DNA of 64,000 nucleotides, from sequence record MW735835.1; one strand, written 5' to 3'. Below are positions 942-56,263 of this stretch, piece after piece. Source of the stretch: Pseudomonas phage pPa_SNUABM_DT01. How positions within the stretch are numbered: position 1 is the stretch's first letter; every line of letters starts with the position of its first letter. A program made the position numbers and the translations under genes. The notes below the pieces were generated by a model. The model worked only from the letters and a program-made list of their open reading frames with translations, ran no database searches and was not told the origin of the DNA.

Positions 942-947
942 TCCAAA

Positions 948-977
948 CATAGAGGAGGGGTTCGCCCCTCCTCTATG
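948..977 (+). terminator. GC-rich hairpin with UUCG loop (CATAGAGGAGGGG-TTCG-CCCCTCCTCTATG)
   Basis: Perfect 13-bp stem 7 nt after the stop of 15-941. No U-tract. Confidence 0.5.
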
Positions 978-1025
978 CCGAATCGACTGATTTTATGACA
1001 AAGATCATCCACCCGGGGAATCCCC

Positions 1026-4065: not shown

Positions 4066-4661
4066 GTAATCCCCGCTACCCCAACCTGGACTTGAAGAGC
4101 ATCGACTCTGTTCGAGAGCACATCTTCAAGGACACTTACACCTACGCCATTCCCGGCTATTTCCGGTACTCGAAAGAGTACAACCAGATCGTCGGGCACT
4201 TGAGCACGGGGTCGAAGCAGGGCGACGCCAACGCGATGGCCGAATACGTCAACATCGGTGGCACCATCGCCGACATCCTGAAGCTGTACGAGAAGGGATG
4301 TGACGTCAAGTTCGAGCACCGTGAAGATATCGTGACGGTTTACGAGGCATTGCTGGCCCACATCAACAACTGGGCCAACTACATCCGTCGTGACCCGAAC
4401 GTCAAGGATGCCCCGCTGAACTCCCTGTACTTGATGAGCGATTTCTGCACCACCATCAAGGCCCAGGTGATGGGCTTCAAGCCCAACGTGGAAGATGTCC
4501 CGCACCTCAAGCGGGTTTCCAGCCTGTTCGGCGGTGTCGTGGGCGCGGAAGAGCTGTTCAACGTCTCCGGTGTGGGCACCACGGTCGAAGAAACTGCTCC
4601 GACCATGAACCGTATCGAGAAAATGCTGGCAGAGCGTAAGAAAGACCAGCAAAAGCGGTAA
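4062..4661 (+). CDS. hypothetical protein (199 aa)
   Basis: ORF with ATGA start/stop overlap to the upstream gene. Confidence 0.55.
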   Translation: MSNPRYPNLDLKSIDSVREHIFKDTYTYAIPGYFRYSKEYNQIVGHLSTGSKQGDANAMAEYVNIGGTIADILKLYEKGCDVKFEHREDIVTVYEALLAHINNWANYIRRDPNVKDAPLNSLYLMSDFCTTIKAQVMGFKPNVEDVPHLKRVSSLFGGVVGAEELFNVSGVGTTVEETAPTMNRIEKMLAERKKDQQKR

Positions 4662-4680
4662 ATTCGACTGAGGGCGTCAC

Positions 4681-6066: not shown

Positions 6067-6111
6067 CACTACATTATCGTGGTGCAGTAACTCAACCTGA
6101 GGTCCACAGCT

Positions 6112-6834
6112 ATGTCTGAAAATCATACGCTGGGGATGGTAACCGTCAGGGCGGGAGAGATACTTACCTTCACATTCGACGAATCCACCCCTGAGAAGCG
6201 TCGGCACCTCACAGTCGTGGCCATCCAAGACATTGATCTAAGTCGTGAGATGGCCTTGTTCTGTCAGGCGACCAACAGAGCTGGTAAGGATATCTACACG
6301 GAGAACGCGCTGCCTGCGTTTATTCAGCATCTGGCAGAGAAGCGGCTCCTGCACGTCGGCAGGGAAGTAAGTGTGCACTTTGGCGACCGTGGTCGTCCTG
6401 CTGCACGACTTATGAATGAGTACAGGTTCAGGATCAACCCCGAATCTTACTGGGAGGACAAGCTGGTCAATCGATACACGACCAGCTCGTTCACGCTATT
6501 CAACCATCAACAGCACAGCCTCATGGTGATGATGGGCGTCGATGCCCCGTTTTACATCCTGGCTGATTTGCTGGACATGCAAGGAGAACCGCTCGGTGTA
6601 CTAAGGCTTTCAATTATACCCGATCAACGGCACACCTTCATCAGTCCCGACGACGTCGAGAGAATCCGGTTGGCCCTGCAAGCCGACATCGCAATGAATG
6701 TAGAAGAGATCAGTGTCATGGTGGAACGAGTCCGTGTGGCATCCAACCCTGACTTTGGTCAAAGCGTCTTCAAGCGTCACCTTCCACCCATCGAACATCC
6801 CCCTAAAGTTGAACCCGAGACATCCACTTCATAA
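6112..6834 (+). CDS. hypothetical protein (240 aa)
   Basis: ORF in the gene array. Confidence 0.5.
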   Translation: MSENHTLGMVTVRAGEILTFTFDESTPEKRRHLTVVAIQDIDLSREMALFCQATNRAGKDIYTENALPAFIQHLAEKRLLHVGREVSVHFGDRGRPAARLMNEYRFRINPESYWEDKLVNRYTTSSFTLFNHQQHSLMVMMGVDAPFYILADLLDMQGEPLGVLRLSIIPDQRHTFISPDDVERIRLALQADIAMNVEEISVMVERVRVASNPDFGQSVFKRHLPPIEHPPKVEPETSTS

Positions 6835-6845
6835 AGGAACAGTGC

Positions 6846-7190
6846 ATGACCACCCCCAACACGTCTTGGAAGAAACCCCGCCCGCAAGGTAACCGCGACG
6901 ATCGTCGTCCGGATCAGCGCCCGCAGCGTTCCAACAGCTTCGGCAGCCTGTCCAGCCTGCGGGAACTCTCCGAACGCCAACCGGTGCGTAAACCGCAAGT
7001 CCAGCCGGAACCCCTGAAGTTCGAGGGTCCGCTGAACCACTGGTATGAAACCGAGCGCAACGGCCGGAAGTCTAAAGTCTTCCTGGTCGAAGTGAAGAAG
7101 GACGTCGTGACTTACAAGGACAAGGTCGAGGACAAGCATTCCCAGACCATGTCCCTGGCGAAGTTCATGAAGTTCTACAAGCCGGAGTAA
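6846..7190 (+). CDS. hypothetical protein with a basic, disordered N-terminus (114 aa)
   Basis: ORF followed by a UUCG hairpin at 7201-7222. Confidence 0.5.
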   Translation: MTTPNTSWKKPRPQGNRDDRRPDQRPQRSNSFGSLSSLRELSERQPVRKPQVQPEPLKFEGPLNHWYETERNGRKSKVFLVEVKKDVVTYKDKVEDKHSQTMSLAKFMKFYKPE

Positions 7191-7197
7191 GACGTGG

Positions 7198-7225
7198 CTT
7201 GAGGGGGCCTTCGGGCCCTCTCTAT
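7198..7225 (+). terminator. hairpin GAGGGGGCC-TTCG-GGCCCTCTC
   Basis: Directly after the stop of 6846-7190. Confidence 0.5.
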
Positions 7226-7254
7226 GCCCTCTCGCCCAAACCACTGAGGTTGCT

Positions 7255-7536
7255 ATGAAAGCACAGTACGTAGTACTGCCGAGTGCGAAAGTGCCGGTAC
7301 GAGCTGGTCAGTTCTTTTCTTTGTCCAGCAAGTTGGACCCAAGCACCAAGGACAACTTCAAAGCCCTCGTGGACTTCGACATGGTCGAAGAGGCACTGAA
7401 GGCTGGTGTTGATCTGCACAAACCCGGCACCCCGACTGACAATGCTCGGGCCAACATGTCCATCGCTGCTCACCTCGTTCATTCGGGCTTGGCAGAAATT
7501 GTTGACAAGCCGAGTAAAAACAAACAAACACACTGA
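7255..7536 (+). CDS. hypothetical protein (93 aa)
   Basis: ORF after a terminator. RBS-like gaggttgctATG. Confidence 0.45.
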   Translation: MKAQYVVLPSAKVPVRAGQFFSLSSKLDPSTKDNFKALVDFDMVEEALKAGVDLHKPGTPTDNARANMSIAAHLVHSGLAEIVDKPSKNKQTH

Positions 7537-7561
7537 ATGGTGTGTATCAAAGGAGTTATCC

Positions 7562-7726
7562 ATGAAACCAGCCGATAAGGAGTTCGAGTCACGCGACGAG
7601 CTGGAAAAGGCTTACAGCGCCGGGTCTCTGAAGACCGGTGAGCGTTACTACGTTCGCAACATCAACGTCACCTATCGCCTTGACGTTACACGTAAAGGCT
7701 TTGTAGAAATCCCGAATAACCAGTGA
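7562..7726 (+). CDS. small hypothetical protein (54 aa)
   Basis: ATG at 7562 preceded by aaaggag. Internal start of the longer tracked ORF 7406-7726. Confidence 0.35.
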   Translation: MKPADKEFESRDELEKAYSAGSLKTGERYYVRNINVTYRLDVTRKGFVEIPNNQ

Positions 7727-16419: not shown

Positions 16420-16911
16420 TTGTCTATGGATCGAACTCCCCTGGCGCTTTGGGCTAAGCACCTCATAAGGGCCGCCATTGACTACTTCAATGAACGCTCG
16501 ACCAAAGCCTGTCTTATCGTTGACAACACCATTCTCAAGGATGGGGTCCTGGCCGCAATGGCTCAGGAGAACAACAGCAGTGACTTCATTGTCTGTGTCG
16601 CACCGGGTTTCACCACCCAGTTAGATTTCGGAGACGCTGATCTGACCATCAGTGTGAAGTTCCACGATGCTGCCCATTCAATGGTCATCCCGTACCACGC
16701 GATTCGTGCAGTGATTGCTGCCGACAGCGGTGGTGTGCTGACCGAGAACGGCCACATTAACATCATCAGCGTCCCGCCGGTTGTGTACCCGCCTGCGTCC
16801 CGCTACCGTAATGAAGAAGAACTGGACAAGATTGCTCAGCAAGTGGTAGAGGAAGAAGTCCATGCCCAGCCCACGCAGTCTGAGCTTCAGCTAGTTGTAC
16901 GGAGATCATGA
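16420..16911 (+). CDS. SspB-like protein, second paralog (163 aa)
   Basis: FIVCVAPGFTTQLDFGDADLTISVKFHDAAHSMVIPYHAIRAVIAADSGG aligns with the SspB core IVLNIAPRAVGNLELANDEVRFNARFGGIPRQVSVPLAAVLAIYARENGAG. N-terminal PLALWAKHLIRAAIDYF resembles SspB PRRPYLLRAFYEWL. C-terminal LQLVVRRS resembles the XB tail LRVVK. Confidence 0.45.
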   Translation: MSMDRTPLALWAKHLIRAAIDYFNERSTKACLIVDNTILKDGVLAAMAQENNSSDFIVCVAPGFTTQLDFGDADLTISVKFHDAAHSMVIPYHAIRAVIAADSGGVLTENGHINIISVPPVVYPPASRYRNEEELDKIAQQVVEEEVHAQPTQSELQLVVRRS

Positions 16912-24067: not shown

Positions 24068-25378
24068 ATGGAAGTATTTCTGGTAGGTGGGTTTGTCCGG
24101 GATACACTTCTCGGACTCTCGCCGAACGATCGCGACTATGTCGTGGTTGGAGAAAGCCCAGAAAGCATGCTGGCGAAGGGGTTCACCCAAGTGGGTGGCC
24201 ACTTCCCGGTATTCTTGCATCCCGAAACCCAAGAAGAATATGCCCTGGCCCGGCAAGAGGTGAGCACCGGTGACGGTTACGGTGACTTCACCTATAACTG
24301 GGACGGGGTGTCGCTCGAGATGGACTTGAGCCGTCGTGATTTGACGATCAATGCCATGGCGATTGACACCAACGGTGAAGTGGTAGACCTGTTTGGAGGG
24401 GTAGCTGACCTCAACGCACGACTACTGCGGCACGTAGGTCCTGCATTCGTTGAAGACCCGTTACGGATCATGCGTGTGGCTCGTCTGTCTGCGGTATTGG
24501 GCTTCGACATCGCGTACGAAACCATGGCCCTCATGAAAGAAATGGTGGCCAAGGGCATGCTTCAGGCGTTACCGGGCGAACGCGTGTGGAAAGAGACTGA
24601 GAAGGCTCTGCTCAGCAAAGAACCGAGTCGGTATTTCAAGGTGCTGAAGGAATGCGGTGCTCTCCATGTCTGGTTCCCTGAACTGGACTTGATGGATCGT
24701 GTCCCGCAGCGTCCTGATTACCACGCTGAAGGCGATGTCTGGGTGCACACCCTGATGGTGCTGGATGAATCGGTGCCGCTGACCATGCATTTGGATCGTG
24801 AGCGTTGCTTGCGAGTGCGTTACGCCACGTTGACGCATGACTTCGGTAAGCTGGGCACACCGCAGAAGCTCTTGTGGGCAGATGACGGTGAGTTGCTGGG
24901 CAAACACCATGGTCATGAGGACCCAGATCGCTTTGGTCCGTTCCTGATGGCCTTCTCCAACCGGATTAAGGTGCCTACTCGCCTGCGTAAGTTCGCTCAT
25001 GTCGTGTCGGTCATTCATCAGAATGTCCACTCGATCAAGAAGATGTCTCCTAAGGGCCTGGTGTCGTTGTTCGACAAGGTCGGCGGTAACCGTTCCATTC
25101 GCGATGATGAATACTACCTGGAAGATCTCTCGATCGCCTGCTTGGCTGATAGCCTCGGTAGGCTGATAACCAAAGAAGATGGGTCGCTGGCTCAGATTCC
25201 CGGGTATCCTCAAGGCCAGTACTTCATCGACACCATGACACTCATCAACAACGTCGATGCTGGCGAGATCATGCAGAAAGAACTGGCCAAACGATGGCCG
25301 GTGAAGAAAGCACTGGAGAGCGTCCGGTCTGCTCGCAGTAAGGCAGTCGCTCCCTACGTCCGATCCCATAAATCTTAG
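24068..25378 (+). CDS. cca: CCA-adding tRNA nucleotidyltransferase (class II, head domain + HD domain)
   Basis: GGFVRDTLLGLSPNDRDYVV (GGxVRD...DxD polymerase head motif). ERVWKE body region. HD motif HTLMVL...ATLTHDFGK. Length 436 aa. Confidence 0.8.
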   Translation: MEVFLVGGFVRDTLLGLSPNDRDYVVVGESPESMLAKGFTQVGGHFPVFLHPETQEEYALARQEVSTGDGYGDFTYNWDGVSLEMDLSRRDLTINAMAIDTNGEVVDLFGGVADLNARLLRHVGPAFVEDPLRIMRVARLSAVLGFDIAYETMALMKEMVAKGMLQALPGERVWKETEKALLSKEPSRYFKVLKECGALHVWFPELDLMDRVPQRPDYHAEGDVWVHTLMVLDESVPLTMHLDRERCLRVRYATLTHDFGKLGTPQKLLWADDGELLGKHHGHEDPDRFGPFLMAFSNRIKVPTRLRKFAHVVSVIHQNVHSIKKMSPKGLVSLFDKVGGNRSIRDDEYYLEDLSIACLADSLGRLITKEDGSLAQIPGYPQGQYFIDTMTLINNVDAGEIMQKELAKRWPVKKALESVRSARSKAVAPYVRSHKS

Positions 25379-30756: not shown

Positions 30757-31674
30757 ATGCCGCCCAGCTTTGAAACACTCAAGACGAAGTTCATGGCGCT
30801 GTTGGTAGCGATCTCTGAGCACCTGGACACCAAGCTGGACAAAACCAGTGCCGCTGTCAGCGCAGATAAGCTTACCAATCCGTTCAGCCTGACTCTCAGT
30901 GGTGATCTTTCTGGTAACGTCTTCATCCAAGGCAATACCAGCATCAACTGGAATGTCACTCTCGTGAATTCCGGCGTTACCGCCGGGGTCTACCCAAAAG
31001 TCACTGTCGATGCCAAAGGCCGTGTGACTGGTGGCGAACTACTTATCGCGGCAGACATCCCTTCCCTAGATGCGGCCAAGATCGGTTCGGGTACCTTTGC
31101 CGTTGCTCGCATTCCGACACTCGATGCATCGAAGGTGGGTACGGGTGTGTTTGACCCTCAGCGTATCCCACTGCCCACTAAACTGGCCGCATCCCGTTCC
31201 TTCACCATGACAGGCGATGGTGATTGGTCGGTCAGTGGTGACCTCAGTGGTAACCTGACCGGCGTCCTGACCCTGGCCAACTCCGGTGTCGTTGCGGGTA
31301 CGTACGGTGGGGCTACTCAGATCCCCCAAGTGACTGTGGATGCCAAAGGCCGTATCACGGGTGTCACGCTGGTGAACATCAAGGCCCAAACGGCCATCCC
31401 GGTGAACGAATACGTGACTGTGGCAGCAGGTGGCGTGAAGCAGTACGACCTGCAAACCCTGCTCGGCGCAGGTCATGCCAGCTTCGACAAGAAGACTGCT
31501 GAGATCTGCGTCCGTGCCAAAGACACCAACAGCGCTTCGCCGATGTACCAGGCGTACGCCAACGCAGAAGCACTGGTCAGTGCGGGCATCAAGGACGAAC
31601 GCTACGTAATCATCGCCAACCAGTCCACTTCCGCGCTGGACCTGTTCGTCAAGGTCCTTGTACATCCTCTTTAA
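30757..31674 (+). CDS. tail fibre protein with internal Phage_fiber_2-like repeats (305 aa)
   Basis: Two repeats: SGDLSGNVFIQGNTS...VNSGVTAGVYPKVTVDAKGRVTGG and SGDLSGNLTGVLTLANSGVVAGTYGG...VTVDAKGRITGV. N-terminus is similar to 46430-47590. Confidence 0.6.
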   Translation: MPPSFETLKTKFMALLVAISEHLDTKLDKTSAAVSADKLTNPFSLTLSGDLSGNVFIQGNTSINWNVTLVNSGVTAGVYPKVTVDAKGRVTGGELLIAADIPSLDAAKIGSGTFAVARIPTLDASKVGTGVFDPQRIPLPTKLAASRSFTMTGDGDWSVSGDLSGNLTGVLTLANSGVVAGTYGGATQIPQVTVDAKGRITGVTLVNIKAQTAIPVNEYVTVAAGGVKQYDLQTLLGAGHASFDKKTAEICVRAKDTNSASPMYQAYANAEALVSAGIKDERYVIIANQSTSALDLFVKVLVHPL

Positions 31675-31684
31675 GGACTGAGCC

Positions 31685-34375
31685 ATGGCTGATATTTCCT
31701 TTGATGTGGCAGAAGGGTACTATCTAGCGCCCTTCACTGCCAACATGCTCTTGAGCGCCAATGTTCAGAGCTTGCAGTTCAGTGTCAACGGGGCACCGCC
31801 TGCCATTTCTAAGTACATCGCGTACGACACCCTCACTCCTCCGAACCCGTTCATCGCGGTGACCCAGGACGGTACGGGTAACGTGGTGTACGACGGTGGT
31901 TTCCCGAAGTTCTACAACAGTGTGGCTCCTGTGGCGGGGATCAATGCCTCGATCACCATGGAGTTCAAAGCCACTCGCACTGCTGGCGCCACCGGTAACA
32001 CGTACTACTACGATGCGTTCACCAACAAGAACGTCACCATTGCTATCGGTGACAAGTTGGTGTACGACATGTTCCAGGATAACATCGACGCCCGGGTCGG
32101 TATCGATGCTATCACTGCGGCTAACCCACAGACCGATCCTGCGACGTATTCCCTGCGTGATTGGGGATGGCCCACCTCTGGTTCCATTAAGGACCAGAAC
32201 GGTTTGGCAGCGCACCCTAGCACCGCCCTGGGCACCCTGCCCGTCGGACAATGGTACCACCGTGAGTTCGACCTGTCGCAGTGTGCCGGTCACACCTTCA
32301 TCAAATGGTCGCTGGCCTACGAAGGTGAAGTGGCAGGTACGTTTGCCACCCGTTTCCGTGACATCTACATCCTGGACCGTGATGGCAACATCAAGGCCAC
32401 CTTGTTCAAGGATGTCATTGACCTGCCCAACAGCTCGTCTGCTGAAGCAGGGGCTTCGGGTTACACCAACCTGAGCAAGACCCTGTACGACCCACGGTCT
32501 CAGTTGTCTGCATCATTCAAGTACCTGTACAACGCCATCAACTGGGTAGCCAACCCCAAGAAGGTGGCAGCGGGTAACCGTAAGATCCTGATTTTGGGTG
32601 ATGCCATCTCCACGGGCTCTTATCCAGTCAAGGGGACGACAGCAAGCGGGTTCAACACCAGCTTTACTCGCTTGTGCGCAGCGGCTGGTTTCACGCCGAC
32701 GTTTAAGGACATCTCTGATTACGCCGGTAGTCGACTTGACCCGACTGCTGCTGAACTGAGTCAGTACACCTGCGTACTGCTGATGTCTTCGCAATCCGGT
32801 AACATCGCTTACATCACCGATGCTGCGGTGCAGAACTTGCTGGCATTCCGAGAAGCAGGTAACGGCTTGATCGTGGTGACCGACCACGGTCCTGTCATCA
32901 GCGATATCGCTCAAGCCAACAACACCGCACTAGGCTCGGCCTTCTTCTGGACAGCAAACAAGCTGATCAGTCAATTTGGCGCGTACTTCAGTGGTGACTA
33001 CAACCGTACGCCTGTGAACGTGGGGTTCCTTCGTTCAACGTACGGCGATCATCCTCTGTATGCCGGCATGACCAACGCTGAGAACATCAGTGCAGGTGGC
33101 TCCGAGAGCCGGGTGCAGGTGGCGATCTATCCATCGCTCACGCCTGGTCAAGTGGCTCCGTTCAACATCGGCAACGGTAAGACGGTGATCCAAGTCACCG
33201 CCACGTTGAACAGCGGTGATATCGTCAGCTACAAGATCACCTACAACGTCGTGACGTTCAAGATCTCCTTCTCGGATGGGACTCAGATCCGGGATAACGG
33301 CCAGACCATGGACGTGGGAGCGAAGAACCAATCCCTCATCAACGCGGTCTTGGTGGGTTCTCTCGACCAGGCGGTTAACGGCATCGTCTACAAGAACGGT
33401 GTTCGTGTAGGGGCTGTCACGTACACTGTTGCCGGTGGTCTAGTACAGACCTGGGACGATTCAAGCGCAGGTGGGGTGAAGGTACAGAACTCCGACAAGT
33501 TCACTGTGATCATGGGCGCTCCCCTGAACATGACCAGTGAGATCACCATCAAGCGATTCCAACCTATCACGGTTCGTGGTAAGAAGGACCTCGCCGACAT
33601 CATGAACACCCTGCGGACGTTCAAGCCTGAGTTGACTGACATCAAGCGGGTTGGAGCAATCATTGCCGACATCGCTGCTGGTGCCCCTGGGCTTGGGATT
33701 ACCCACTCGGTTAACATCCCGCTCAACCTGAAACTGTTGGGCGACCACTTCAACAACGAAGGCCGCACATCCGCTGACCACATTTGGAAACTGGAAGCCG
33801 ACCTTGCAGACCTCATGGGAACCAAAGCAGCAGTTGCAACCGGAGCAATGAACTACGTCACCTTCGGTGGCAAGAACGCATTGAAGTTTACGCCGGGCAG
33901 CAACGCATGGGTGACCATCAACAACCTGAAATTCGGTACCGGTCCGTGGTCGGTGAACCTCTGGTACAACCCAGTCAACTTCACTGATTACCACCACCTC
34001 CTCTCGACACCGGACAACGCGACACTCATCTTCAAGATAGGCAAGAACACTGACCCAATCGCAGCGGCCAAGCCTTATGTAGTCGCGAGTTCGTTCAACG
34101 TCGCCGGAGGTAAGGTTGGAGCTGATTTGGTTACAGCGGGGGCTTGGTCGATGTTCACGTTCACGTTTACCGGGTCTTCTTTGAAGATCTACGTGAACGG
34201 CGTACTGAAAGGTGACTTCGCCGTCACCATGAACGTACCTCTGTCCAATTTCAAGATTGGACATTACACGAACGGGACGACCACCGAGCAATCCAACGGC
34301 TATCAGCGTGACCTGTCCATCTACAGTCATGCCTTGACGACCAATGAAATACTCGAACTGTACGCTTCTGGATAA
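31685..34375 (+). CDS. large tail fibre / tailspike-like protein (896 aa) with C-terminal LamG-like jelly-roll
   Basis: Largest ORF, in the tail-fibre module. C-terminal region (WSVNLWYNPVNFTDYHHLL...SLKIYVNGVLKGDF) resembles concanavalin/LamG folds. Overlapping minus ORFs are shadows. Confidence 0.6.
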   Translation: MADISFDVAEGYYLAPFTANMLLSANVQSLQFSVNGAPPAISKYIAYDTLTPPNPFIAVTQDGTGNVVYDGGFPKFYNSVAPVAGINASITMEFKATRTAGATGNTYYYDAFTNKNVTIAIGDKLVYDMFQDNIDARVGIDAITAANPQTDPATYSLRDWGWPTSGSIKDQNGLAAHPSTALGTLPVGQWYHREFDLSQCAGHTFIKWSLAYEGEVAGTFATRFRDIYILDRDGNIKATLFKDVIDLPNSSSAEAGASGYTNLSKTLYDPRSQLSASFKYLYNAINWVANPKKVAAGNRKILILGDAISTGSYPVKGTTASGFNTSFTRLCAAAGFTPTFKDISDYAGSRLDPTAAELSQYTCVLLMSSQSGNIAYITDAAVQNLLAFREAGNGLIVVTDHGPVISDIAQANNTALGSAFFWTANKLISQFGAYFSGDYNRTPVNVGFLRSTYGDHPLYAGMTNAENISAGGSESRVQVAIYPSLTPGQVAPFNIGNGKTVIQVTATLNSGDIVSYKITYNVVTFKISFSDGTQIRDNGQTMDVGAKNQSLINAVLVGSLDQAVNGIVYKNGVRVGAVTYTVAGGLVQTWDDSSAGGVKVQNSDKFTVIMGAPLNMTSEITIKRFQPITVRGKKDLADIMNTLRTFKPELTDIKRVGAIIADIAAGAPGLGITHSVNIPLNLKLLGDHFNNEGRTSADHIWKLEADLADLMGTKAAVATGAMNYVTFGGKNALKFTPGSNAWVTINNLKFGTGPWSVNLWYNPVNFTDYHHLLSTPDNATLIFKIGKNTDPIAAAKPYVVASSFNVAGGKVGADLVTAGAWSMFTFTFTGSSLKIYVNGVLKGDFAVTMNVPLSNFKIGHYTNGTTTEQSNGYQRDLSIYSHALTTNEILELYASG

Positions 34376-40576: not shown

Positions 40577-40786
40577 ATGGCAGACATCGACGCATCGGTA
40601 AAGAACATCCAGCAATCCATCGCCGCACTGCTGGAGCGCGTCAATAAAGGGGAAGTTCTGTCCAAGGAAGAAGCTCAGGCACTCCTCGAGTGTCGAAAGC
40701 AGTTCGACCAGCTCAAGCAGGTCGACACTTACAAGGAAATTCTGCGTGGCACCAAACTGAAAGAACTCACTGACAAGTGGGCTTAG
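40577..40786 (+). CDS. hypothetical coiled-coil protein (69 aa)
   Basis: ORF with aaggaacatcATG. Confidence 0.4.
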   Translation: MADIDASVKNIQQSIAALLERVNKGEVLSKEEAQALLECRKQFDQLKQVDTYKEILRGTKLKELTDKWA

Positions 40787-40794
40787 GGGGCATC

Positions 40795-41154
40795 ATGAGT
40801 AATCGCAATCTGGCAGCGTGTTACGACACGGTCATCTATTTCCAGGACAAGGGCAAGCCGCGTCAGTACATCAAGGCGATCGGCAAAGACCTCCTCGAGT
40901 TCATTTACTTCACGGAGAATCTGGACGAAGCCAAACTGTTCCGCCCCCATGTAGGCTGGGCAGGTGAAGGCATCGACTACGACTCTTACCACAACGCGTT
41001 CAACATCTTGGTCCAGCGCTTGCGCAAGGATGACAAGTATCGTGTGGCGTTGGGGAATGAGATCTTCGACGAAACCAATAACCAGACGGTCGTCGCAGCC
41101 ATGCGCATCGAGCACACCGACCGTCTGACCACCGTACTGATGCCGCAGGAGTAA
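40795..41154 (+). CDS. hypothetical protein (119 aa)
   Basis: ATG after ggggg. Avoids overlap with the upstream gene. Confidence 0.4.
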   Translation: MSNRNLAACYDTVIYFQDKGKPRQYIKAIGKDLLEFIYFTENLDEAKLFRPHVGWAGEGIDYDSYHNAFNILVQRLRKDDKYRVALGNEIFDETNNQTVVAAMRIEHTDRLTTVLMPQE

Positions 41155-41156
41155 CC

Positions 41157-41513
41157 GTGAGCAAATCTGAGGAACCGATTGTCGTCATCAAATGGCTACA
41201 CTCGTCCTCGGGCCGCAGTAAACGCAGCGAGATCGTCAACCAAGGATGCTTCGTGCTCGAGCACGAAGCTACCGGGCGCTTCTATCTGGGCCAGAGCGAC
41301 AACGTCAGCAAAGACGTCGATAAACAACTTTCCCAACTGGCAAACGGCAAGCACCCGAACAAGATCCTGAACGTCCTCTACGAGAAGGACAACGAGATCC
41401 GGGTGTTCGAATATCCACAGAAGGCAAAGAAGAAACGCGTAACCCTCATGCGTGAGCTGATTGAGAAGGCCGGCTACCTTTGCCTAAATCCAAGAGATGT
41501 CCGCAATGTATAA
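41157..41513 (+). CDS. GIY-YIG domain protein (118 aa), GTG start
   Basis: GCFVLEHEATGRFYLGQSDNVSKDVDKQLSQLANGKH matches the GIY-(10 aa)-YIG...R...H core. Confidence 0.5.
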   Translation: MSKSEEPIVVIKWLHSSSGRSKRSEIVNQGCFVLEHEATGRFYLGQSDNVSKDVDKQLSQLANGKHPNKILNVLYEKDNEIRVFEYPQKAKKKRVTLMRELIEKAGYLCLNPRDVRNV

Positions 41514-42012
41514 AGACCTGAAGCTTCCCAAGCTGGTGCAGCAGATTCTCCTGGTCACCCGTGACCACATTCTTTCTTCGTCCGCCAAGTGCCACATGTT
41601 GGTGCTGGCGACTCCCAAGTTCCTCAAGGACAATCCGCACCTGAAGCCGAGCGCGTTCGAACACGCGATCTTCGGCCCGGTCGTGGTCCTGAACATCACC
41701 CCGCAAGCGATCGGCCCGATCACCTTGGGTGATGACTTCATCAGCTTCGAAGCCCGCTACAGTGGTGCCCTGCTGACCAACTTCGTGACCATGGGTGACA
41801 TCGTTGGCTTGTATTCGCCAGAAGAAGGCTCGGTCATGATCGACGTCGGTGTGGTCAACCTCATCGGTGATACCGGCATGGGTGACGGCAGTGTCGGCAT
41901 GATTGCTGCCCGTCCGCTGAACAGCTACGAGCCGGCAGAATCCGAAGCCCAGGTCCAAACCCAACCCGTTCAACCGCCGCGTGAGCGCCCTAGCCTGAAG
42001 GTAGTCAAATGA
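41497..42012 (+). CDS. sspB: SspB homolog (ClpX adaptor-like), 171 aa
   Basis: GPVVVLNITPQAIGPITLGDDFISFEARYSGA aligns with E. coli SspB GQIVLNIAPRAVGNLELANDEVRFNARFGG. C-terminus PPRERPSLKVVK aligns with the SspB ClpX-binding tail PPRGGRPALRVVK. Confidence 0.6.
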   Translation: MSAMYKDLKLPKLVQQILLVTRDHILSSSAKCHMLVLATPKFLKDNPHLKPSAFEHAIFGPVVVLNITPQAIGPITLGDDFISFEARYSGALLTNFVTMGDIVGLYSPEEGSVMIDVGVVNLIGDTGMGDGSVGMIAARPLNSYEPAESEAQVQTQPVQPPRERPSLKVVK

Positions 42013-42431
42013 GTCAGATAGCTCTGTTCGATGACGGCCGTAAAGAACCTGTCGAGTACGCTTTCGGCGTCCCGGTGCAGGTCTTAATCCCGGACTCCCA
42101 TGGCCTGACCCAGGCTGAGGTCGATGACCTGATGCCGTCGGCTGCCCTGCCGATCTTCACCACCTATCCGAAGCGCAACCTGCGTCCGGGTCTGGCGGAT
42201 TTCTATGCCAAGCTCAAGCCGGCTAAGATCGGCTACCTGCGGGCCTCAGGCTTCGTAAAAGGAAATGAAGGCTGGGTATTACATGGGAGAATCGAGTATG
42301 GGGACAATGTGCGCAGTGAACTGCTCACCGATCCCCGCCTGGTGGTTCTCAGTGTCGACATCGAACGTGGCGATCCTTCTAAGGGGCGAAAGGCTATTGG
42401 CCTGGACCGGATGATGGTAAGCCCGAAGTAA
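42009..42431 (+). CDS. hypothetical protein (140 aa)
   Basis: ORF overlapping the SspB stop by 4 nt. Confidence 0.45.
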   Translation: MSQIALFDDGRKEPVEYAFGVPVQVLIPDSHGLTQAEVDDLMPSAALPIFTTYPKRNLRPGLADFYAKLKPAKIGYLRASGFVKGNEGWVLHGRIEYGDNVRSELLTDPRLVVLSVDIERGDPSKGRKAIGLDRMMVSPK

Positions 42432-42440
42432 GGAGCCTCC

Positions 42441-44435
42441 ATGGACAACCGCATCGAAGCCCTGCGGGCAGAGATCAGTCGTCTGAACGATCTCTACTAC
42501 AACGAAGGGGATTCCGGCGTCGAAGATGCCGTGTACGATTCCCTGAAGAAGGAACTGCGGGAACTCGAAGGTGAAACCGACGACCCGCTGTCCCCTCTGA
42601 ACATCATCGGGGCTCCCGTCGCCGGGGGCTTCGATAAAGTCAAGCACCTGACCCCCATGCAGAGCCTGGGCAACGTGTATAACGAGACTGAACTCACCGA
42701 CTGGTGTGACAATCTCGAGTATCCGGCCTGCGCTCAGATGGAACTCAAGCATGACGGCCTGGCCATTGACCTGCTGTACGACAAGACTCACCTGAAGTAT
42801 GCCGCTACCCGCGGCGACGGTGAAGTCGGTGATGATATCACCGATAACGCCATTTACTTCGAGGGTGTGCCAGAGCAGCTGCGTGGTTTCAGCGGTAAAG
42901 TTGAAATCCGTGGTGAAGCTGTCATCCCGCACAAGCACTTCAAGCGTGTTTGTGAACTGCGTGAGTCGCTGGGCAAGAAAGTCTACGCCAACCCCCGCAA
43001 CATGGTGGCTGGACTGGCTCGCAAAAAGGAAGGAGCGGAGCTGCAAGGCATGGGCATCCGCTTCATCGCCTACGATGCAGTCATTCACACCGACGAAGGC
43101 CCGCTTTCGGTGCCGATGTCGTACTTCCAGCAGGATCTTCAGAGCCAGTTCTACATCTCTCTGCCGGTCTGGGAGGGTTTGACCAGCGATATCGTCAACA
43201 TCGTCGAAACAATCGACGACGTAGCCGAGACTCGTGAGACCCTAGGGCATGACATTGACGGCTTGGTACTGAAATTGATCAAGCCTGAAGACCGCAAAGC
43301 CCTCGGCAGCCGTTCTACCAGCCCGCGATGGGCCGTGGCGTACAAGTTCGAAGCCCAGACCACGACCTCAGTGCTGCAAAGCGTCGAATTGCAGGTCGGT
43401 CGTACCGGGGCCATCACCCCAGTGGCCAAGATCAAGCCCGTCAAGCTCTGCGGTGTGACCATCAGCAGCGTGACGCTTCACAATTTCGAAGAAATCGAGC
43501 GGTTGGACCTCCGTCTGCTCGACACGGTTGTCGTTTCCCGTCGTGGCGACGTCATCCCGAAGATCGAAAGCGTGATCACGGCTCTGCGTACTGACGAACA
43601 CGGCATCATCCCCATTCCCACGGAGTGTCCGTGCTGTGGGGCGCCGTTGAGCAAGAAGGAAGTGGGCAAAGAAGAAGGTGTGAAGCTGTACTGCACCAAC
43701 TCCGTCACCTGTCCTGCTCAGGTCATCAACAAAATGGCCTACTTTGTCAGCCGCGATGGCATCGACGTGAAGAACCTCGGCCCAGCCGCCGTCGAATCCT
43801 TGATTGTGTCGGGTTCGTTGGGGTCGTTCAGCTCGTTGTTCCACCTGACCGAGTCGGATTTCTACAACGCTGGCATCGGGGAAGCCATGACCGACAAGAT
43901 CATGGCCAGTATCGAACGCTGCAAGAAGCTGCCGTTCAAGAAAGTCCTGCGTGCTGTCGGTATCCCGGAAGTCGGCGACTCCACTGCTCGTGATTTGGCG
44001 TTGTTCTACTCGTCGTTCAAGGAGTTGTTCGAAGCCAAGGCTGAAGACATTGAACGAATCCCGGACATCGGCCCTGCGGTCTCTGCAAGCCTCGCTAAGG
44101 CGTTCGAATCCAATGGCGCCGATTACCTGGCCTTGGATAAGATCCTCACCTACGAGGCTGATACGGTCCTTAAAGCCGAGATTCAGGACCTCGCCGGCAA
44201 AACTGTGGTGGTGAGTGGCAGTGACTTCGATGGTAAGTCGCGCAAGGAGATGGAAGCCGACGTGATTTCGCGTGGTGCTAAGCTCTCCAAGTCCGTCAGC
44301 AAGAAAACCGACATCCTCTTCGCAGGTATTGGTGCTGGCCCAGACAAAGTCAAGACCGCCAAAGAGCTGGGGTTCGTCGTTGATGGCATCATGATGACCA
44401 ATCCCAATTCCCTCACTCGCATTCTTCCTCTGTAA
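42441..44435 (+). CDS. ligA: NAD-dependent DNA ligase
   Basis: Adenylation motif ELKHDGLAIDLLY (KxDG). OB fold. Zn-finger CPCCGAPL...C...C. HhH region. C-terminal BRCT (GKTVVVSGSDFDGKSRKEME...). Length 664 aa. Confidence 0.85.
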   Translation: MDNRIEALRAEISRLNDLYYNEGDSGVEDAVYDSLKKELRELEGETDDPLSPLNIIGAPVAGGFDKVKHLTPMQSLGNVYNETELTDWCDNLEYPACAQMELKHDGLAIDLLYDKTHLKYAATRGDGEVGDDITDNAIYFEGVPEQLRGFSGKVEIRGEAVIPHKHFKRVCELRESLGKKVYANPRNMVAGLARKKEGAELQGMGIRFIAYDAVIHTDEGPLSVPMSYFQQDLQSQFYISLPVWEGLTSDIVNIVETIDDVAETRETLGHDIDGLVLKLIKPEDRKALGSRSTSPRWAVAYKFEAQTTTSVLQSVELQVGRTGAITPVAKIKPVKLCGVTISSVTLHNFEEIERLDLRLLDTVVVSRRGDVIPKIESVITALRTDEHGIIPIPTECPCCGAPLSKKEVGKEEGVKLYCTNSVTCPAQVINKMAYFVSRDGIDVKNLGPAAVESLIVSGSLGSFSSLFHLTESDFYNAGIGEAMTDKIMASIERCKKLPFKKVLRAVGIPEVGDSTARDLALFYSSFKELFEAKAEDIERIPDIGPAVSASLAKAFESNGADYLALDKILTYEADTVLKAEIQDLAGKTVVVSGSDFDGKSRKEMEADVISRGAKLSKSVSKKTDILFAGIGAGPDKVKTAKELGFVVDGIMMTNPNSLTRILPL

Positions 44436-44448
44436 ACAGGAGTACTCA

Positions 44449-44913
44449 ATGAGCACCCAACAACTGATCATGTTCGACAAGCCGCTGACCATCGAGGAGG
44501 CCGTGCAAGCGGCCCCTGACCAAGCTCTGGCGCTTCCCTGGGGTGTCCAGTCCATGGTGGCCGACACGGTGCGTCACATGGTCCTGCTGGCGTCGTCCAT
44601 CAGCGAACACTACCGCTATGCCCTCGGCCTGTCCGGAGGCATCGCCCAGTACCTTTACGACCAACCGGCCGGTGCCATCACCAACCCGGATCTCTTCCTG
44701 CGCACCGCTCAGGTTGGTAGCCTGATCGGTCACTTCGATGGCTTGGAAACCCATGCCATCCAGGCCGAGATCCCCGAAGACGAACAGTGCATGATGCTGC
44801 TCGTCATCAACGACGACAAGCTGGTAGTCGGCTACCTGCTCACCAAGCTGCGCGAGTACGGCGACCACATCAACGTGAACAACGTCCTTCCTAAGACCAA
44901 GGCGGCTCAATAA
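44449..44913 (+). CDS. hypothetical protein (154 aa)
   Basis: ORF in the array. Confidence 0.45.
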   Translation: MSTQQLIMFDKPLTIEEAVQAAPDQALALPWGVQSMVADTVRHMVLLASSISEHYRYALGLSGGIAQYLYDQPAGAITNPDLFLRTAQVGSLIGHFDGLETHAIQAEIPEDEQCMMLLVINDDKLVVGYLLTKLREYGDHINVNNVLPKTKAAQ

Positions 44914-45474
44914 ATGGAAATCTTCAACAAGCTGGTCGACGCCCTGCGTGCTGCGCAGAATGACGACATTCAACTGACCCTGACCGGTAAAGCCGGCCAA
45001 GGCAACCTGACTGCGCGAGTGCACTACAAGCGCGACAACCTGCTGACCAAGATCCTGTACCGCCACGACCTGTCGCGCCTGGGCCCGAACAGCGAAGAGT
45101 TGGCCATGTATTGCGCCGGTCTCGAACGTCCGCAGCAGCACATGTGGACCAAGATCCCCGGCCGTCAAATGGTCGAGTTGGCACGTGTCACCGGTAGCCT
45201 GGGTGTGAACCCGGACATGTACCTGCCGGCCTGCTGCGACATCGGCGGCCTGGTGCTGAAGGGCTACGACGAGTTCCCGCACACCAGCGCGTACCTGCGC
45301 CAGTGGTCTGCCAAGGGCAAGGGCATCGGCCTCGAGCTGATCGTCCTGTACCGCAGCGAAGCCGAAGTCCACGTCTTCGAGTCGTCGATCAACTACTACA
45401 TCCAGCCGGACATGGACAAGTTGGTCGCCAGCCTGAAGAAGATCCACGAAGCCGGCGCTCTCAAGGTCGGCTAA
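44914..45474 (+). CDS. hypothetical protein (186 aa)
   Basis: ORF with ATG overlapping the upstream stop (TAAATG). Confidence 0.45.
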   Translation: MEIFNKLVDALRAAQNDDIQLTLTGKAGQGNLTARVHYKRDNLLTKILYRHDLSRLGPNSEELAMYCAGLERPQQHMWTKIPGRQMVELARVTGSLGVNPDMYLPACCDIGGLVLKGYDEFPHTSAYLRQWSAKGKGIGLELIVLYRSEAEVHVFESSINYYIQPDMDKLVASLKKIHEAGALKVG

Positions 45475-45990
45475 ATGGTCAAGGTCTCGCTGATCTACGC
45501 CCAGAACGAGGACGGTGCCATCGGTTTGAAGGGTTCTCACCCGATGCCGTGGCACTTCCCGGAGGACATGCAGCGTTTCGCAGCCCTTACCAAAGGTAAG
45601 GCGATGGTCATGGGGTCGAGTACCTTCGACTCCCTGCCTCGTATCCTTCCGGGTCGCTTCCATTACGTGATGACCCGTAGCCAGGGTCTCCCGCGTCTGG
45701 GGCGCCTCGATCAAGTACAGTTTCTGAACAGCCTCGAGCAGGTGTTCGAGAAAGCCACCCTACACGCTGAAGAACTCTTCGTGATCGGCGGTGGTGACAT
45801 CTTGAACCAAGCCATGCATTGGGCTGACACCATTTATCGCACAGTCGTGCTCAACACTCCGCTTCGGGGTCGTGAGCTGGCCAAGGTCAAGAAGCCGGGT
45901 GAAGACCCGATCTGGAAACGCTTCAAGCTGACCGACACCCAGCGCATCGATGATCGTCTGATCTTCGAGACCTACGAACGCATCATCTAA
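45475..45990 (+). CDS. folA: dihydrofolate reductase
   Basis: VSLIYAQNEDGAIGLKGSHPMPWHFPEDMQRF...KAMVMGSSTFDSLP matches the DHFR N-terminal NADPH/folate-binding motifs. Length 171 aa. Confidence 0.8.
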   Translation: MVKVSLIYAQNEDGAIGLKGSHPMPWHFPEDMQRFAALTKGKAMVMGSSTFDSLPRILPGRFHYVMTRSQGLPRLGRLDQVQFLNSLEQVFEKATLHAEELFVIGGGDILNQAMHWADTIYRTVVLNTPLRGRELAKVKKPGEDPIWKRFKLTDTQRIDDRLIFETYERII

Positions 45991-46000
45991 GGATTGCATC

Positions 46001-46345
46001 ATGAAGAAATGGCTTTTGGTTATGTTGTCTCTGTTGTGTACTTCTGCATTCGCTGAAGAGCAGCGCTTTGTAATGGAACCCGCTCATTGCAAGGTCCTGA
46101 GGCTTCATGCCCTAAAGGCCATCACGGGTAAGCAAACTGGGGTTGTGTACCCTCAGTATGTCCGTGAACGGGTGGAGGACTCCCAGTCACTCGTGGCAGG
46201 GGAACGGTTGATCTACATGGACATCCTTCCGTACTCGCTGGAAATGGCGTACGAGTACTACCACAACGACTTCAACGACAGCACCCCTTACGAGGAAGTG
46301 ATCTACGACAACTGCATGAAACGCGTCGGCGACGTCGCGCAATAA
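46001..46345 (+). CDS. secreted hypothetical protein (114 aa)
   Basis: Signal peptide MKKWLLVMLSLLCTSAFA. Terminator at 46340-46369. Confidence 0.5.
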   Translation: MKKWLLVMLSLLCTSAFAEEQRFVMEPAHCKVLRLHALKAITGKQTGVVYPQYVRERVEDSQSLVAGERLIYMDILPYSLEMAYEYYHNDFNDSTPYEEVIYDNCMKRVGDVAQ

Positions 46346-46369
46346 TACCGGGAGGGCCTAGGCCCTCCC
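46340..46369 (+). terminator. intrinsic terminator GGGAGGGCC-TA-GGCCCTCCC + TTTTTATTTTG
   Basis: Stem + U-tract after the stop of 46001-46345. Confidence 0.65.
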
Positions 46370-47594: not shown

Positions 47595-47620
47595 GGGAGG
47601 GCTTCGGCCCTCCCCTTTTA
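47595..47620 (+). terminator. intrinsic terminator GGGAGGGC-TTCG-GCCCTCCC + CTTTTA
   Basis: After the stop of tail-fibre-like gene 46430-47590. Confidence 0.6.
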
Positions 47621-50893: not shown

Positions 50894-52765
50894 GTGACTG
50901 AAGCAATCCAATACCACGAAGCCCTGGACGAACTGCGCGCAGCCTCCGAGGCTCTCCTGAAAGATGGCGCCGGTGTCATCTTCACCACCCAGTGCCGTAA
51001 GAAGCTGGGCGAACAATATCTGCGCGCGATGGCCAACGCGGCCAAAGAGCTGAACATGGACGTCAACGAGGTGGTCACTCACTTCCGTTGCTCCACCTGC
51101 TCCCGCTTCATGGCCCGTGTGGGTCACCTGGTGATCTCCAACCCGGAAAACCCCTTCGCCGTTCGTTCTGTGTTCTGGAACCCGGCAGTCGTCACCGACC
51201 CGCTGATGAAACTGGTCGTGGCCGAGATGAAGCGTTACGTCGAGAGCGCTCGTATCCAGAACGTCTACAACGTGGACGGCCCGTACAAGCAGTACACCGA
51301 GGTGACCAACCTGGGCGGTAAAGAGTTCCGCCACTACTTCATCCCGCAGGCCGTGCTGACCCACCGCGTCCCGGTGCTGAACAACCCGATCAGCATCGCC
51401 GACTTCTCCAAGAAGTTCGACCAGGTCGCAGCCCTGATCCGTTTCACCGGTGAAGTGTCGCTGGACACCGTGATGTACGTCGACGGCCTGTTCCAGGCGC
51501 GCATGATCGAACACGTCGGCGCGTCCGAGAAGACCATGGGTGATCTGAAGGCCCTGTTGGCCAGCCTGCAAGTGGCCAAGTCCACCTCGGACTACGGCCT
51601 GGCTCAGGGTGACTACAACAAGGAAACCATTCTGGTCAACACCATCTGGATGGCAGCCCTGCGCAACATGAACATGCTGTCGATCCGTGGTTCGATCCTC
51701 GGCAAGCTGCTGGCCTTCACCCACGATGCCCTGGCCAAGGGCGCTCGTGAAGCGCAACTGGACGGCATCAAGAAGTTCTGGGCCACCCAGACCGACGGCC
51801 TGCACTACCAGCGCACCACCCGTGAGGCTAGCGAGTCGCAGCTCTCCAAGACCGCTCGTTTCCTGGAAGAAGGCGGCTGGAACGAGTCGCTGAAGCAGGT
51901 CGAAGCGGCCGAACTGGACCTGCCGGTACTCTGGCAAGCCAAGGAAGCCTGGACGTTCGAAGAAGGCCACAAAGCCATCTCCAACGACTTCGCTGCCTTC
52001 GCGGCCAAGAAGGGCGTCGAGCTGAACGATCCGACTCAACCGAAACCCATCGACCTCGGCTACTTCATCAACGAAGTCCTGCCGTTTGTCGAATCCATGG
52101 GCTTCGTGGCTACCGGCCTGACCTTCATGCCGATCCTGGTGAACCGTATGGCCAACCTGGAAGCCAAGCCGATCTTCGTCTACGACACCCTCGAGAACCG
52201 CGCTCCGTTCATCCCGTGGCGTTACGACCGTAACTACTCGGTGCGTGAGCTGAACCCGCTGGCCAGCCTGACCAAGAACGGCGAGACCGTCCTGCCGGTG
52301 CTGTCGATCACCTCGGATTCCACCATTGGTTACAAGGGCCGTCGTCCTCAGGACAACGACATCTTCTTCCAGTTCGGTGGCATCTCGATGCCGCAAGCGC
52401 CGCGCCCGGCACTCTTCGCCGAGTCCATGGACAAGCAGTTCTACGAGCACCGTCGTGCGATCGAGGACTACTGCCGCAACACCATCGTACCGCGTTCGGA
52501 AACCCAGCAGTCGATCTCGATGGTCTTCGGCCCGCGTCATCCGCAGGACCACTCGAATGTGTTCGTGCTCCTGCACGTGCGTTTCGGTGAAGAAGGCAAG
52601 GCCCGTTTCGGTGCGACCAATGTGACCTACCGCTTCGATGCGCGCGGTTACACCGTCCAGCCGGACCTCAGCAAGTTCGAAGTGATTCGTGACCGGACCA
52701 AGGTCGCCGTCACCGAGCCGACTGAAGCGCCGAAAGTGCCCACGGCAGAAGTCCGCGCACTGTAA
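50894..52765 (+). CDS. hypothetical large protein (623 aa), GTG start
   Basis: aaggaag RBS. Long ORF. Terminator 52773-52798. Confidence 0.6.
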   Translation: MTEAIQYHEALDELRAASEALLKDGAGVIFTTQCRKKLGEQYLRAMANAAKELNMDVNEVVTHFRCSTCSRFMARVGHLVISNPENPFAVRSVFWNPAVVTDPLMKLVVAEMKRYVESARIQNVYNVDGPYKQYTEVTNLGGKEFRHYFIPQAVLTHRVPVLNNPISIADFSKKFDQVAALIRFTGEVSLDTVMYVDGLFQARMIEHVGASEKTMGDLKALLASLQVAKSTSDYGLAQGDYNKETILVNTIWMAALRNMNMLSIRGSILGKLLAFTHDALAKGAREAQLDGIKKFWATQTDGLHYQRTTREASESQLSKTARFLEEGGWNESLKQVEAAELDLPVLWQAKEAWTFEEGHKAISNDFAAFAAKKGVELNDPTQPKPIDLGYFINEVLPFVESMGFVATGLTFMPILVNRMANLEAKPIFVYDTLENRAPFIPWRYDRNYSVRELNPLASLTKNGETVLPVLSITSDSTIGYKGRRPQDNDIFFQFGGISMPQAPRPALFAESMDKQFYEHRRAIEDYCRNTIVPRSETQQSISMVFGPRHPQDHSNVFVLLHVRFGEEGKARFGATNVTYRFDARGYTVQPDLSKFEVIRDRTKVAVTEPTEAPKVPTAEVRAL

Positions 52766-55033: not shown

Positions 55034-56263
55034 ATGCCTGCACAAGTCAACATCAACAACTACGACAACCACCTCGTGATCACCGCCACCGACCAGAGCA
55101 ATCTGGTGGATCATGTCCCGGCGATGGTCTACAAGGCAGTGTTGCGTCCGTACGGCATCGTGCTGATCAAGGACCGTCCGACCTTCACCCTTCCGCAACT
55201 GCGCTTCGGTCGCCATAAGCGTTTCTTCACCCAGATCAGTAACAGCTATGACCGCGATGGCCGTGGCACTGGCGTGCTGTTGGCTGGTGAAAAGGGCACC
55301 GGTAAGTCGCTGATGGCGGAAGAACTGGGCGCCTGGATGATCAAGCAGGACCTGCCGGTGATCATGGTCAGCGAACCCATGTCGGCTGAAGACCTGTCGG
55401 TCGTCATTAAGGCTGTCGGGCCGTGCATGGTGCTCTTCGACGAGTTCGGTAAGGTGTATCACGATGTCCACGAGCGTGAACGCCTGCTGACCCTGTTCTC
55501 GGACACCTCGTTCGTCGGTGTGATGTTCGTCATCACGGGCAACGCTGCCAGTGAGTTCTCCGAGTTCCTGGTTCACCGCCCTCAGCGGTTCCTCTACTGC
55601 ATCAACTACCACAGTGGTGTGGACGAGGAGACCATGGAAGACATCCTTACCACCATGCAGGTCAAGCCGGAGATGCATGAGCTGTTCCGCGAGTACCGGG
55701 TCGATAGCCGTACCCTGAACATCGACTCGCTCATGTGCGTCGTGCGTCAGTCGGCGGACTGCAAGACCCCGGAGGAGCTTGTAGAGCGTTGCGAGATCCT
55801 CAACGTACCGGAACTTCCTAAGAAGCGCTGGTACATCAAGGATGTCGTTCAGCTCAGCACGGACACCGAGGAAGTCAAGCCGTTTGGCTGGGACTTCAAC
55901 GCGAACCGTGTAGGCTTCATCGGCCTGATCGAAGGACGTGTGATGGAAGCCCGCCATATTCGCGATCCAGAGGGCCGTCGTACGTCTGTCGAGTACCAAG
56001 TCTCTGCTGACAACAGCGACGTCAAGATCGTCGTAGAAGGCATGCGCACTTTCGAGGTAACCCTCACTTACGGTTACATGCGCCCATGCTTTGATGCTGT
56101 GAAGCATGGTGAGCCGCACCCTGAGGCGGTTCTTACCAGAGAAAACAACCTCATGGTCCCTTCACGGGCAGGTGGTTTTGGTACGTTCCATTCCGAGGCC
56201 ACCGTGGATAGCGGCTCGCCGCGTGAACCGTGGCGAGCCGTTCAACCGGCAGGCCGTCATTAA
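55034..56263 (+). CDS. AAA+ ATPase (409 aa)
   Basis: Walker A GVLLAGEKGTGKSL. Walker B CMVLFDEFG. Sensor-1-like FVITGN. Confidence 0.65.
   Translation: MPAQVNINNYDNHLVITATDQSNLVDHVPAMVYKAVLRPYGIVLIKDRPTFTLPQLRFGRHKRFFTQISNSYDRDGRGTGVLLAGEKGTGKSLMAEELGAWMIKQDLPVIMVSEPMSAEDLSVVIKAVGPCMVLFDEFGKVYHDVHERERLLTLFSDTSFVGVMFVITGNAASEFSEFLVHRPQRFLYCINYHSGVDEETMEDILTTMQVKPEMHELFREYRVDSRTLNIDSLMCVVRQSADCKTPEELVERCEILNVPELPKKRWYIKDVVQLSTDTEEVKPFGWDFNANRVGFIGLIEGRVMEARHIRDPEGRRTSVEYQVSADNSDVKIVVEGMRTFEVTLTYGYMRPCFDAVKHGEPHPEAVLTRENNLMVPSRAGGFGTFHSEATVDSGSPREPWRAVQPAGRH

Follow-up and report, generated by a model that had tools for sequence, protein, structure and literature searches.

A divergent SspB-like protein with a Pseudomonas-type putative ClpX-binding tail encoded by phage pPa_SNUABM_DT01

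Pseudomonas phage pPa_SNUABM_DT01 (accession MW735835) is a 265.5-kb (265,520-bp) phiKZ-related phage with P. aeruginosa as its host. We analysed a 64,000-nucleotide stretch of its genome, hereafter the window, in which a compact block of plus-strand genes includes a small endonuclease-like gene, an NAD-dependent DNA ligase gene, a dihydrofolate reductase (DHFR) gene and, directly after the first of these, a gene whose product is, by sequence comparison, a very divergent homolog of the ClpXP adaptor SspB. The paper describing the phage, published in 2021, gives the accession, the host, and virion and non-virion RNA polymerases of the phiKZ type, and nowhere mentions the SspB-like gene (PMC8541153). 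A first-pass annotation of the window, made from the letters alone, had proposed a phage-encoded SspB homolog at this position; the source of the record bears out the phage origin. The identification itself is correct but was already known, since a GenBank annotation exists and phage SspBs have been described (PMC5587285, PMC10299810). New here are the exact match of the C-terminal tail to that of the host genus, the definition of a rare divergent clade, and a second, unannotated SspB-fold paralog. The coordinates of all features are collected in Table 1.

An uninterrupted plus-strand open reading frame (ORF) of 171 amino acids (aa) spans 41497..42012 with the C-terminal end PPRERPSLKVVK, and both its sequence and its C-terminus are as first described. 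GC content by codon position (0.74 at third positions, GC3) favours this frame over an antisense shadow ORF at 41446..41973. The first-pass annotation had taken the whole ORF as the protein; a reading frame of that length exists, but the product more likely comprises 168 aa and starts at the second ATG (41506). A Shine-Dalgarno-like AAGAG motif touches the first ATG (41497) and lies 9 nucleotides (nt) upstream of the second, and metagenome gene calls and the 168-aa GenBank protein both agree with the second; because all three fit 41506, the shorter product appears the most likely one. Residue numbers throughout refer to the 171-aa frame. By exact-sequence look-up, the 168-aa product is the GenBank protein QTH80469.1, which is annotated there as "putative ClpXP protease specificity-enhancing factor". 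BFVD contains a viral protein 100% identical to it, and ENA metagenomes contain a phage with 98.9% identity. Of the codon differences from this metagenomic relative, 7 are synonymous and 1 is nonsynonymous; on that count the gene is subject to purifying selection, and the ORF is unbroken in all relatives. Neither the DNA of the locus nor the protein had a match in an INPHARED-derived phage collection, which is explained by the absence of MW735835 from it.

Table 1. Positions of the SspB-like gene, its parts and other features in the window
Feature	Position	Strand	Basis or remark
SspB-like coding sequence, 168 aa, identical to QTH80469.1	41506..42012	+	ORF and exact look-up
Folded SspB-like substrate-binding domain, residues ~10-116 (helix 10-28, then beta-rich core)	41524..41844	+	AlphaFold2, Foldseek
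Clade-specific insertion/remodelled segment, residues 40-59, PKFLKDNPHLKPSAFEHAIF	41614..41673	+	Alignments; two short helices predicted
VVVLNITPQAIG, SspB 'VLNI.P.A' strand, residues 62-73	41680..41715	+	At least 90% conserved in the subfamily and canonical SspBs
FEARYSG, SspB 'F.ARF.G' strand, residues 84-90	41746..41766	+	Conserved in the subfamily and canonical SspBs
Flexible linker, residues ~121-160	41857..41976	+	Low pLDDT; length and sequence vary, gapped columns among relatives
Putative ClpX-binding (XB) tail RPSLKVVK	41986..42009	+	Stop codon 42010-42012
Degenerate SspB-fold paralog, 161 aa, QTH80425.1 'hypothetical protein'	16426..16911	+	
Compact gene block: endonuclease-like gene, SspB-like gene, NAD-ligase, DHFR	40577-46345	+	
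118-aa endonuclease-like gene	41157-41513	+	phrog_13862, E=3.5e-27; directly upstream of the SspB-like gene
140-aa gene, function unknown	42009..42431	+	Start overlaps the SspB-like stop (ATGA)
NAD-dependent DNA ligase	42441-44435	+	Complete domain set: adenylation, OB, Zn, HhH, BRCT
DHFR	45475-45990	+	
Strong intrinsic-terminator hairpin ending the block	46350-46369	+	
Sister terminator hairpin	47595-47614	+	
Thymidylate synthase, 474 aa	20000-21424	+	Pfam match in two separate stretches
CCA-adding/polyA-polymerase-like enzyme	24068-25378	+	
Tail-fibre-like gene	30757-31674		Beside the 896-aa Laminin_G_3 protein
896-aa protein, C-terminal Laminin_G_3/concanavalin-like lectin domain	31685-34375	+	
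623-aa protein, phrog_1735 (unknown function)	50894-52765	+	
Head-tail joining protein			Encoded in the window

The profile and model comparisons with SspB proposed in the first-pass annotation were both run and both pointed to this family. The PHROG profile phrog_8945 ("SspB-like") matched nearly end to end, with residues 10-171 aligned to profile positions 8-149 of 149 (E=5.1e-9, 37 bits), and nine NCBIfam models of ClpXP specificity-enhancing factors matched as well, seven of them at E=2e-11 to 1e-5. A sequence search of the PDB gave ten significant matches, all of them SspB; the E. coli SspB chain 8et3_Y (phmmer, E=2e-6) aligned with residues 54-171, and in this alignment the tail pairs residue by residue with E. 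coli SspB PPRGGRPALRVVK. AlphaFold2 run from the single sequence was unusable, with a predicted local distance difference test (pLDDT) score of 40.5, and was replaced by a model from a 23-sequence multiple sequence alignment (MSA). This model reached pLDDT >90 for residues ~20-110 and 87-97 over residues 11-110, and fell to <50 over residues 121-146. The top 13 Foldseek matches to the PDB were SspB structures only (probability 1.00, E 1e-6 to 1e-4).

The three-part architecture of SspB is present, with a folded domain, a flexible linker of ~40 residues and a C-terminal XB peptide. Both core motifs on which the first-pass alignment was built are in place: L65, N66 and A71, where the protein reads VVVLNITPQA, correspond to Leu-53, Asn-54 and Ala-59 of E. 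coli SspB, and F84, R87 and G90 correspond to Phe-72, Arg-75 and Gly-78. A column-by-column comparison found these six positions common to the clade described below and to canonical SspBs, together with P159, L161, V163 and K165 (E. coli numbering) in the tail. Elsewhere the domain is remodelled. An insertion of 8-12 residues (FL.DNPH...) precedes the VLNI strand; residues 40-59 stand where canonical SspB has 'LPGVQVPMEYARDG', and N46 and P47 within them are conserved in the phage subfamily only. The N-terminal helix is predicted with high confidence, yet the conserved residues of the canonical helix are not retained. The signature RPYLLRA.YEW..DN..TP is absent, W20, T27 and P28, invariant in the canonical set, are replaced by H, K and C, and the canonical YARENG reads YSPEEG. 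By our own mapping from residue numbers, the YARENG segment probably includes R91 and E92 of P. aeruginosa SspB, which contact AlgU. Compared with bacterial SspB (E. coli; P. aeruginosa PA4427; PDB 1OX9, 1OU8, 8ET3), the SspB-like protein shares the architecture, the predicted fold and the core residues, but it is phage-encoded, carries the insertion, and lacks the canonical N-terminal signature and YARENG.

The C-terminal tail is intact and, as the first-pass annotation had noted, nearly identical to the SspB XB peptide, in the version found in the host genus. RPSLKVVK forms the exact last eight residues of SspB in each of 34 Pseudomonas species (34/34) among SspB loci sampled from Pseudomonas genomes, where PPRP[ST]G directly precedes it; the E. 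coli terminus is RPALRVVK, with A where the phage tail has S and R where it has K. The core, by comparison, is only ~23% identical to canonical SspB. Across the clade, the L-x-V-V-K residues (L167, V169, V170 and K171) are at least 90% conserved, on par with the core positions, whereas the linker varies freely. At the DNA level, 18-22 of 27 nt of the tail codons are identical to host-genus genes with the differences at synonymous sites, and the divergence is about that found among Pseudomonas species themselves. These synonymous differences rule out a recent graft of the 3' end of a host sspB gene and suggest selection on the peptide. Replacing the last eight residues of P. aeruginosa SspB (R128-K135) with alanine weakens ClpX binding, with the dissociation constant (Kd) rising from 27 nM to 179 nM (PMC13251409). 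In free form, the XB peptide inhibits the breakdown by ClpXP of substrates that depend on the ClpX N-domain, such as lambda O and FtsZ (PMC3983244), and the XB peptide alone suffices for recruitment of ClpXP to a fused protein (PMC12373786).

Relatives of the protein are rare. Searched exhaustively with HMMER, a set of 1.84 billion representatives yielded just 25 at E<=1e-3, and about 10 of these form, with the SspB-like protein, a clade of ~11 members with overall identities of 25-44%. This clade was monophyletic in 144 of 200 bootstraps and stands apart from canonical SspBs and from the phage SspBs described so far. The N-terminal W/TP and YARENG motifs are missing throughout, and the tail is retained throughout. 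A profile search of a 5.8-billion-protein database found no further clade members. One protein from the HMMER search, the 799-aa repeat protein P0005, was discounted, as its match is probably spurious or due to composition.

Homologs of E. coli SspB occur in 81 phage records, mostly of phiKZ-like jumbo phages; they include phiKZ gp232, the Erwinia Agricanvirus group with RAY gp39, Ralstonia FLC4-3B, Xanthomonas LucasX and RTH11, and the T4-like phage pf16. XB-like C-termini are present in pf16, RAY and FLC4-3B, sub-terminal in phiKZ gp232, and absent in both Xanthomonas phage proteins. RAY gp039 has been described as an SspB-like ClpXP adaptor whose fusion to GFP is found in the cytoplasm, outside the phage nucleus (PMC10299810, 2023). 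Like the present protein, it and its Agricanvirus relatives (annotated 'putative SspB-like ClpXP adaptor') come from phiKZ-like jumbo phages and combine an SspB-like domain with an XB-like end, KKPTLTVVK; RAY gp39 differs in keeping the canonical TP motif, in clustering with bacterial SspBs, and in sharing only 16% core identity with the SspB-like protein. The SspB homolog gp18 of pf16, a T4-like phage of P. putida, for which competitive inhibition of RseA delivery has been proposed (PMC5587285, 2017), is likewise a Pseudomonas-phage protein with an intact XB-like tail, KKPTLRVVK. This tail is not host-identical, however, and gp18 shares 53% identity with E. coli SspB and as much as 68% with Pseudomonas SspBs, a closeness suggestive of recent capture from a host. 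In phiKZ itself, gp232 (PHIKZ232, with orthologs in PA7, KTN4 and others) is also a P. aeruginosa jumbo-phage protein with an SspB-like N-terminal domain, and its gene lies three genes upstream of thymidylate synthase (ThyA), in a nucleotide-metabolism setting like that of the SspB-like gene. It differs in size, at 302 aa, through a long additional stretch in the middle, and in its sub-terminal XB-like motif (PKLTVIKGGKK); it is annotated as a hypothetical protein only and falls outside the clade. PHROG 8945, whose full label is 'stringent starvation protein SspB-like' and whose category is moron, auxiliary metabolic gene and host takeover, is no more than an entry in a catalogue.

A second protein in the window, annotated as hypothetical, appears to be a newly recognised member of the SspB fold. 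It matched a custom SspB hidden Markov model (HMM) at E=1e-10, Pfam SspB at E=2.5e-3 and phrog_8945 at E=8e-3; its top five PDB sequence matches were all SspB (E~0.1), and hhalign against A3 gave a probability of 87.8% (E=3e-6). This paralog is degenerate, with VCV in place of the VLN motif of the core and an end, ...ELQLVVRRS, that is XB-like yet not terminal. We found no homologs of it in the deposited phage collection.

Taken together, we consider the protein to be probably a phage-made, highly divergent SspB-type adaptor for host ClpXP, a reading we hold with some confidence. Because the XB peptide is identical to that of Pseudomonas SspB, RPSLKVVK most likely anchors the phage protein, in infected P. 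aeruginosa, to the zinc-binding N-domain of the ClpX of the host. The remodelled SspB groove would present cargo to ClpXP, and, as the central groove residues are kept while their surroundings are replaced and an insertion lies beside the groove, this cargo would be other than, or extend beyond, ssrA-tagged proteins. By taking up N-domains, the phage protein would in addition be in competition with host SspB and with other clients that depend on this domain. The cytoplasmic location of RAY gp039, which is where host ClpXP would be, counts in favour of an adaptor. More tentatively, and in our view rather doubtful in its full extent, a phage-specific SspB clade may have kept only the groove core and a host-mimicking tail, with the remainder of the binding surface rebuilt, and may re-target cytoplasmic host ClpXP to new cargo, perhaps together with the paralog. 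Candidates for such cargo would be a protein of host defence or regulation, or one of the phage's own that is removed on schedule, and the whole would amount to a natural viral device for targeted protein degradation.

Several observations weigh against assigning an adaptor role. The Pfam SspB match (PF04386, E=3.9e-4) reached 20.9 bits where the gathering score is 27, and the best NCBIfam equivalog model reached 44.1 bits (E=2e-11) where the cut-off is 135, with all NCBIfam models far below threshold; scores that are significant yet sub-threshold point to a divergent relative and not an equivalog. The core is only ~22-27% identical to canonical SspB. The Foldseek TM-scores (0.52-0.65, target) are just moderate, and the MSA behind the model included canonical SspBs, which biases the model to that fold. 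About 18 canonical positions are not conserved in the clade: P11, Y12, R15, A16, W20, N24, T27, P28, P42, D48, G49, P57, P86, A95, E97, G99, G101 and F104 (E. coli numbering). Conservation among SspBs is limited to the dimer interface and the ssrA groove (PMC9963277), so the lost positions probably cover parts of both, and neither dimerisation nor ssrA binding can be assumed for the SspB-like protein. RPSLKVVK as the tail of P. aeruginosa SspB is itself deduced, from the 34 other Pseudomonas species and from the end points R128 and K135 of the alanine-replaced segment. Finally, we found no biochemical characterisation, of binding or of degradation, in the literature on phage SspB homologs.

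The loss of so many canonical positions, next to a tail that is host-identical and the most strictly conserved element of the protein, fits a decoy or competitive inhibitor that saturates ClpX N-domains through its XB tail and delivers nothing. Such a protein could protect phage substrates of ClpXP or shut down host SspB-, RssB- or MucA-type pathways, and the inhibition of N-domain-dependent degradation by free XB peptide gives it a precedent (PMC3983244). We judge it unlikely, though the strongest of the rivals: conservation of L65, N66, A71, F84, R87 and G90 at 25-44% identity would be needless for a mere tail carrier, even if the domain might serve dimerisation or avidity. Competition would, moreover, be an automatic by-product of an adaptor, and the two readings are not exclusive. 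The same core positions, VLN...A and F.AR..G, and the unchanged architecture would also suit a plain equivalent of host SspB, binding the ssrA tag (AANDENY-type) and boosting ClpXP clearance of tagged products of transfer-messenger RNA (tmRNA), with recycling of amino acids and rescue of ribosomes. This is improbable, as a host SspB with an identical tail is already present, the insertion and remodelled groove flank set the protein apart, and W20, T27-P28, P42, D48-G49 and the YARENG residues A95, E97, G99 and G101 are lost; the separate standing of the clade in the bootstraps and the finding of no tmRNA gene in the window argue in the same direction.

Very low profile scores, the scarcity of homologs and a degenerate paralog in the same genome would be expected of a decaying, functionless remnant of a captured host sspB, or of an SspB fold reused for a role other than at ClpX. 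We regard either as highly improbable. The ORF is intact in relatives with a synonymous:nonsynonymous ratio of 7:1, synteny is kept at ~27% identity, the tail is conserved in the clade as well as identical to that of the host genus, and the gene shares a compact operon with those for ligase and DHFR. A divergent ClpXP adaptor thus remains the explanation we prefer. If it holds, the virus would equip a host AAA+ protease with a targeting subunit that the virus itself encodes, which would be a bacterial counterpart to the viral hijacking of ubiquitin ligases and a natural precedent for XB-based engineered degraders (CLIPPERs). A host-identical tail on a remodelled cargo domain makes this hypothesis cleanly testable in P. 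aeruginosa, for which the phage, host genetics and a ClpX-SspB binding assay exist. The immediate gain is modest: the hypothesis has become sharper, the clade is defined, and one paralog has been newly recognised.

The stop of the endonuclease-like gene upstream overlaps the likely start of the SspB-like gene (ATGTATAA). This gene, which may encode a small homing-type endonuclease, is found in the near-identical metagenomic contigs and is not upstream of the SspB-like gene in the related locus L013. In L013/L014, where the SspB-like protein is ~27% identical, the gene order is kept as SspB-like gene, small gene, 664-aa NAD-ligase, two small genes and DHFR, followed by a ~388-aa gene and then a 160-aa gene. 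The 140-aa gene product downstream of the SspB-like gene is 35% identical (E=5e-27) to that of the gene after the SspB-like gene in L013, and did not resemble the products of the genes found downstream in L010 and L015; it was rejected as a universal partner, being conserved in the closest phage clade only. On a 130-kb contig, another clade member has DHFR on one side and ThyA on the other. As a separate observation, L013/L014 (the P0012 carrier) holds nine tandem paralogs with DUF7941 at 894-7645 on the minus strand, just upstream of the SspB-like block, and the window shows nothing obviously like this array at the corresponding place. The two terminator hairpins of Table 1 are near-identical and GC-rich, each directly following a gene end, with the form GGGAGGGC-NNNN-GCCCTCCC and then a T-run. 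Shuffled sequence yields no such hairpins, and the two look like a reused, phage-specific terminator module.

Window genes are nearly all on the plus strand and densely packed, and several tail-fibre-like proteins are among their products. A structural protein is 31-34% identical to its counterparts in phiKZ-like jumbo phages such as RP12, Xoo-sp14, Noxifer and Phabio. No ClpX-like phage protein was seen in the window; an AAA+ protein at 55034-56263 was considered as a phage ClpX partner and rejected, as a zinc-finger domain is missing from its N-terminus and its sole PHROG match is to a generic phage ATPase. The 623-aa protein is not detectably a chimallin. Its sole detectable relative in deposited phages, a remote match at 22% identity, is a hypothetical protein of the Janthinobacterium siphophage Donnerlittchen. 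The 896-aa Laminin_G_3 protein is probably a receptor-binding or decoration protein, and several LamG-domain genes have been reported in this phage (PMC8541153). The split Pfam match of the thymidylate synthase implies a large insertion, and extended forms of this enzyme also occur in relatives, with 467 aa in L010 and ~488 aa in phiKZ gp235.

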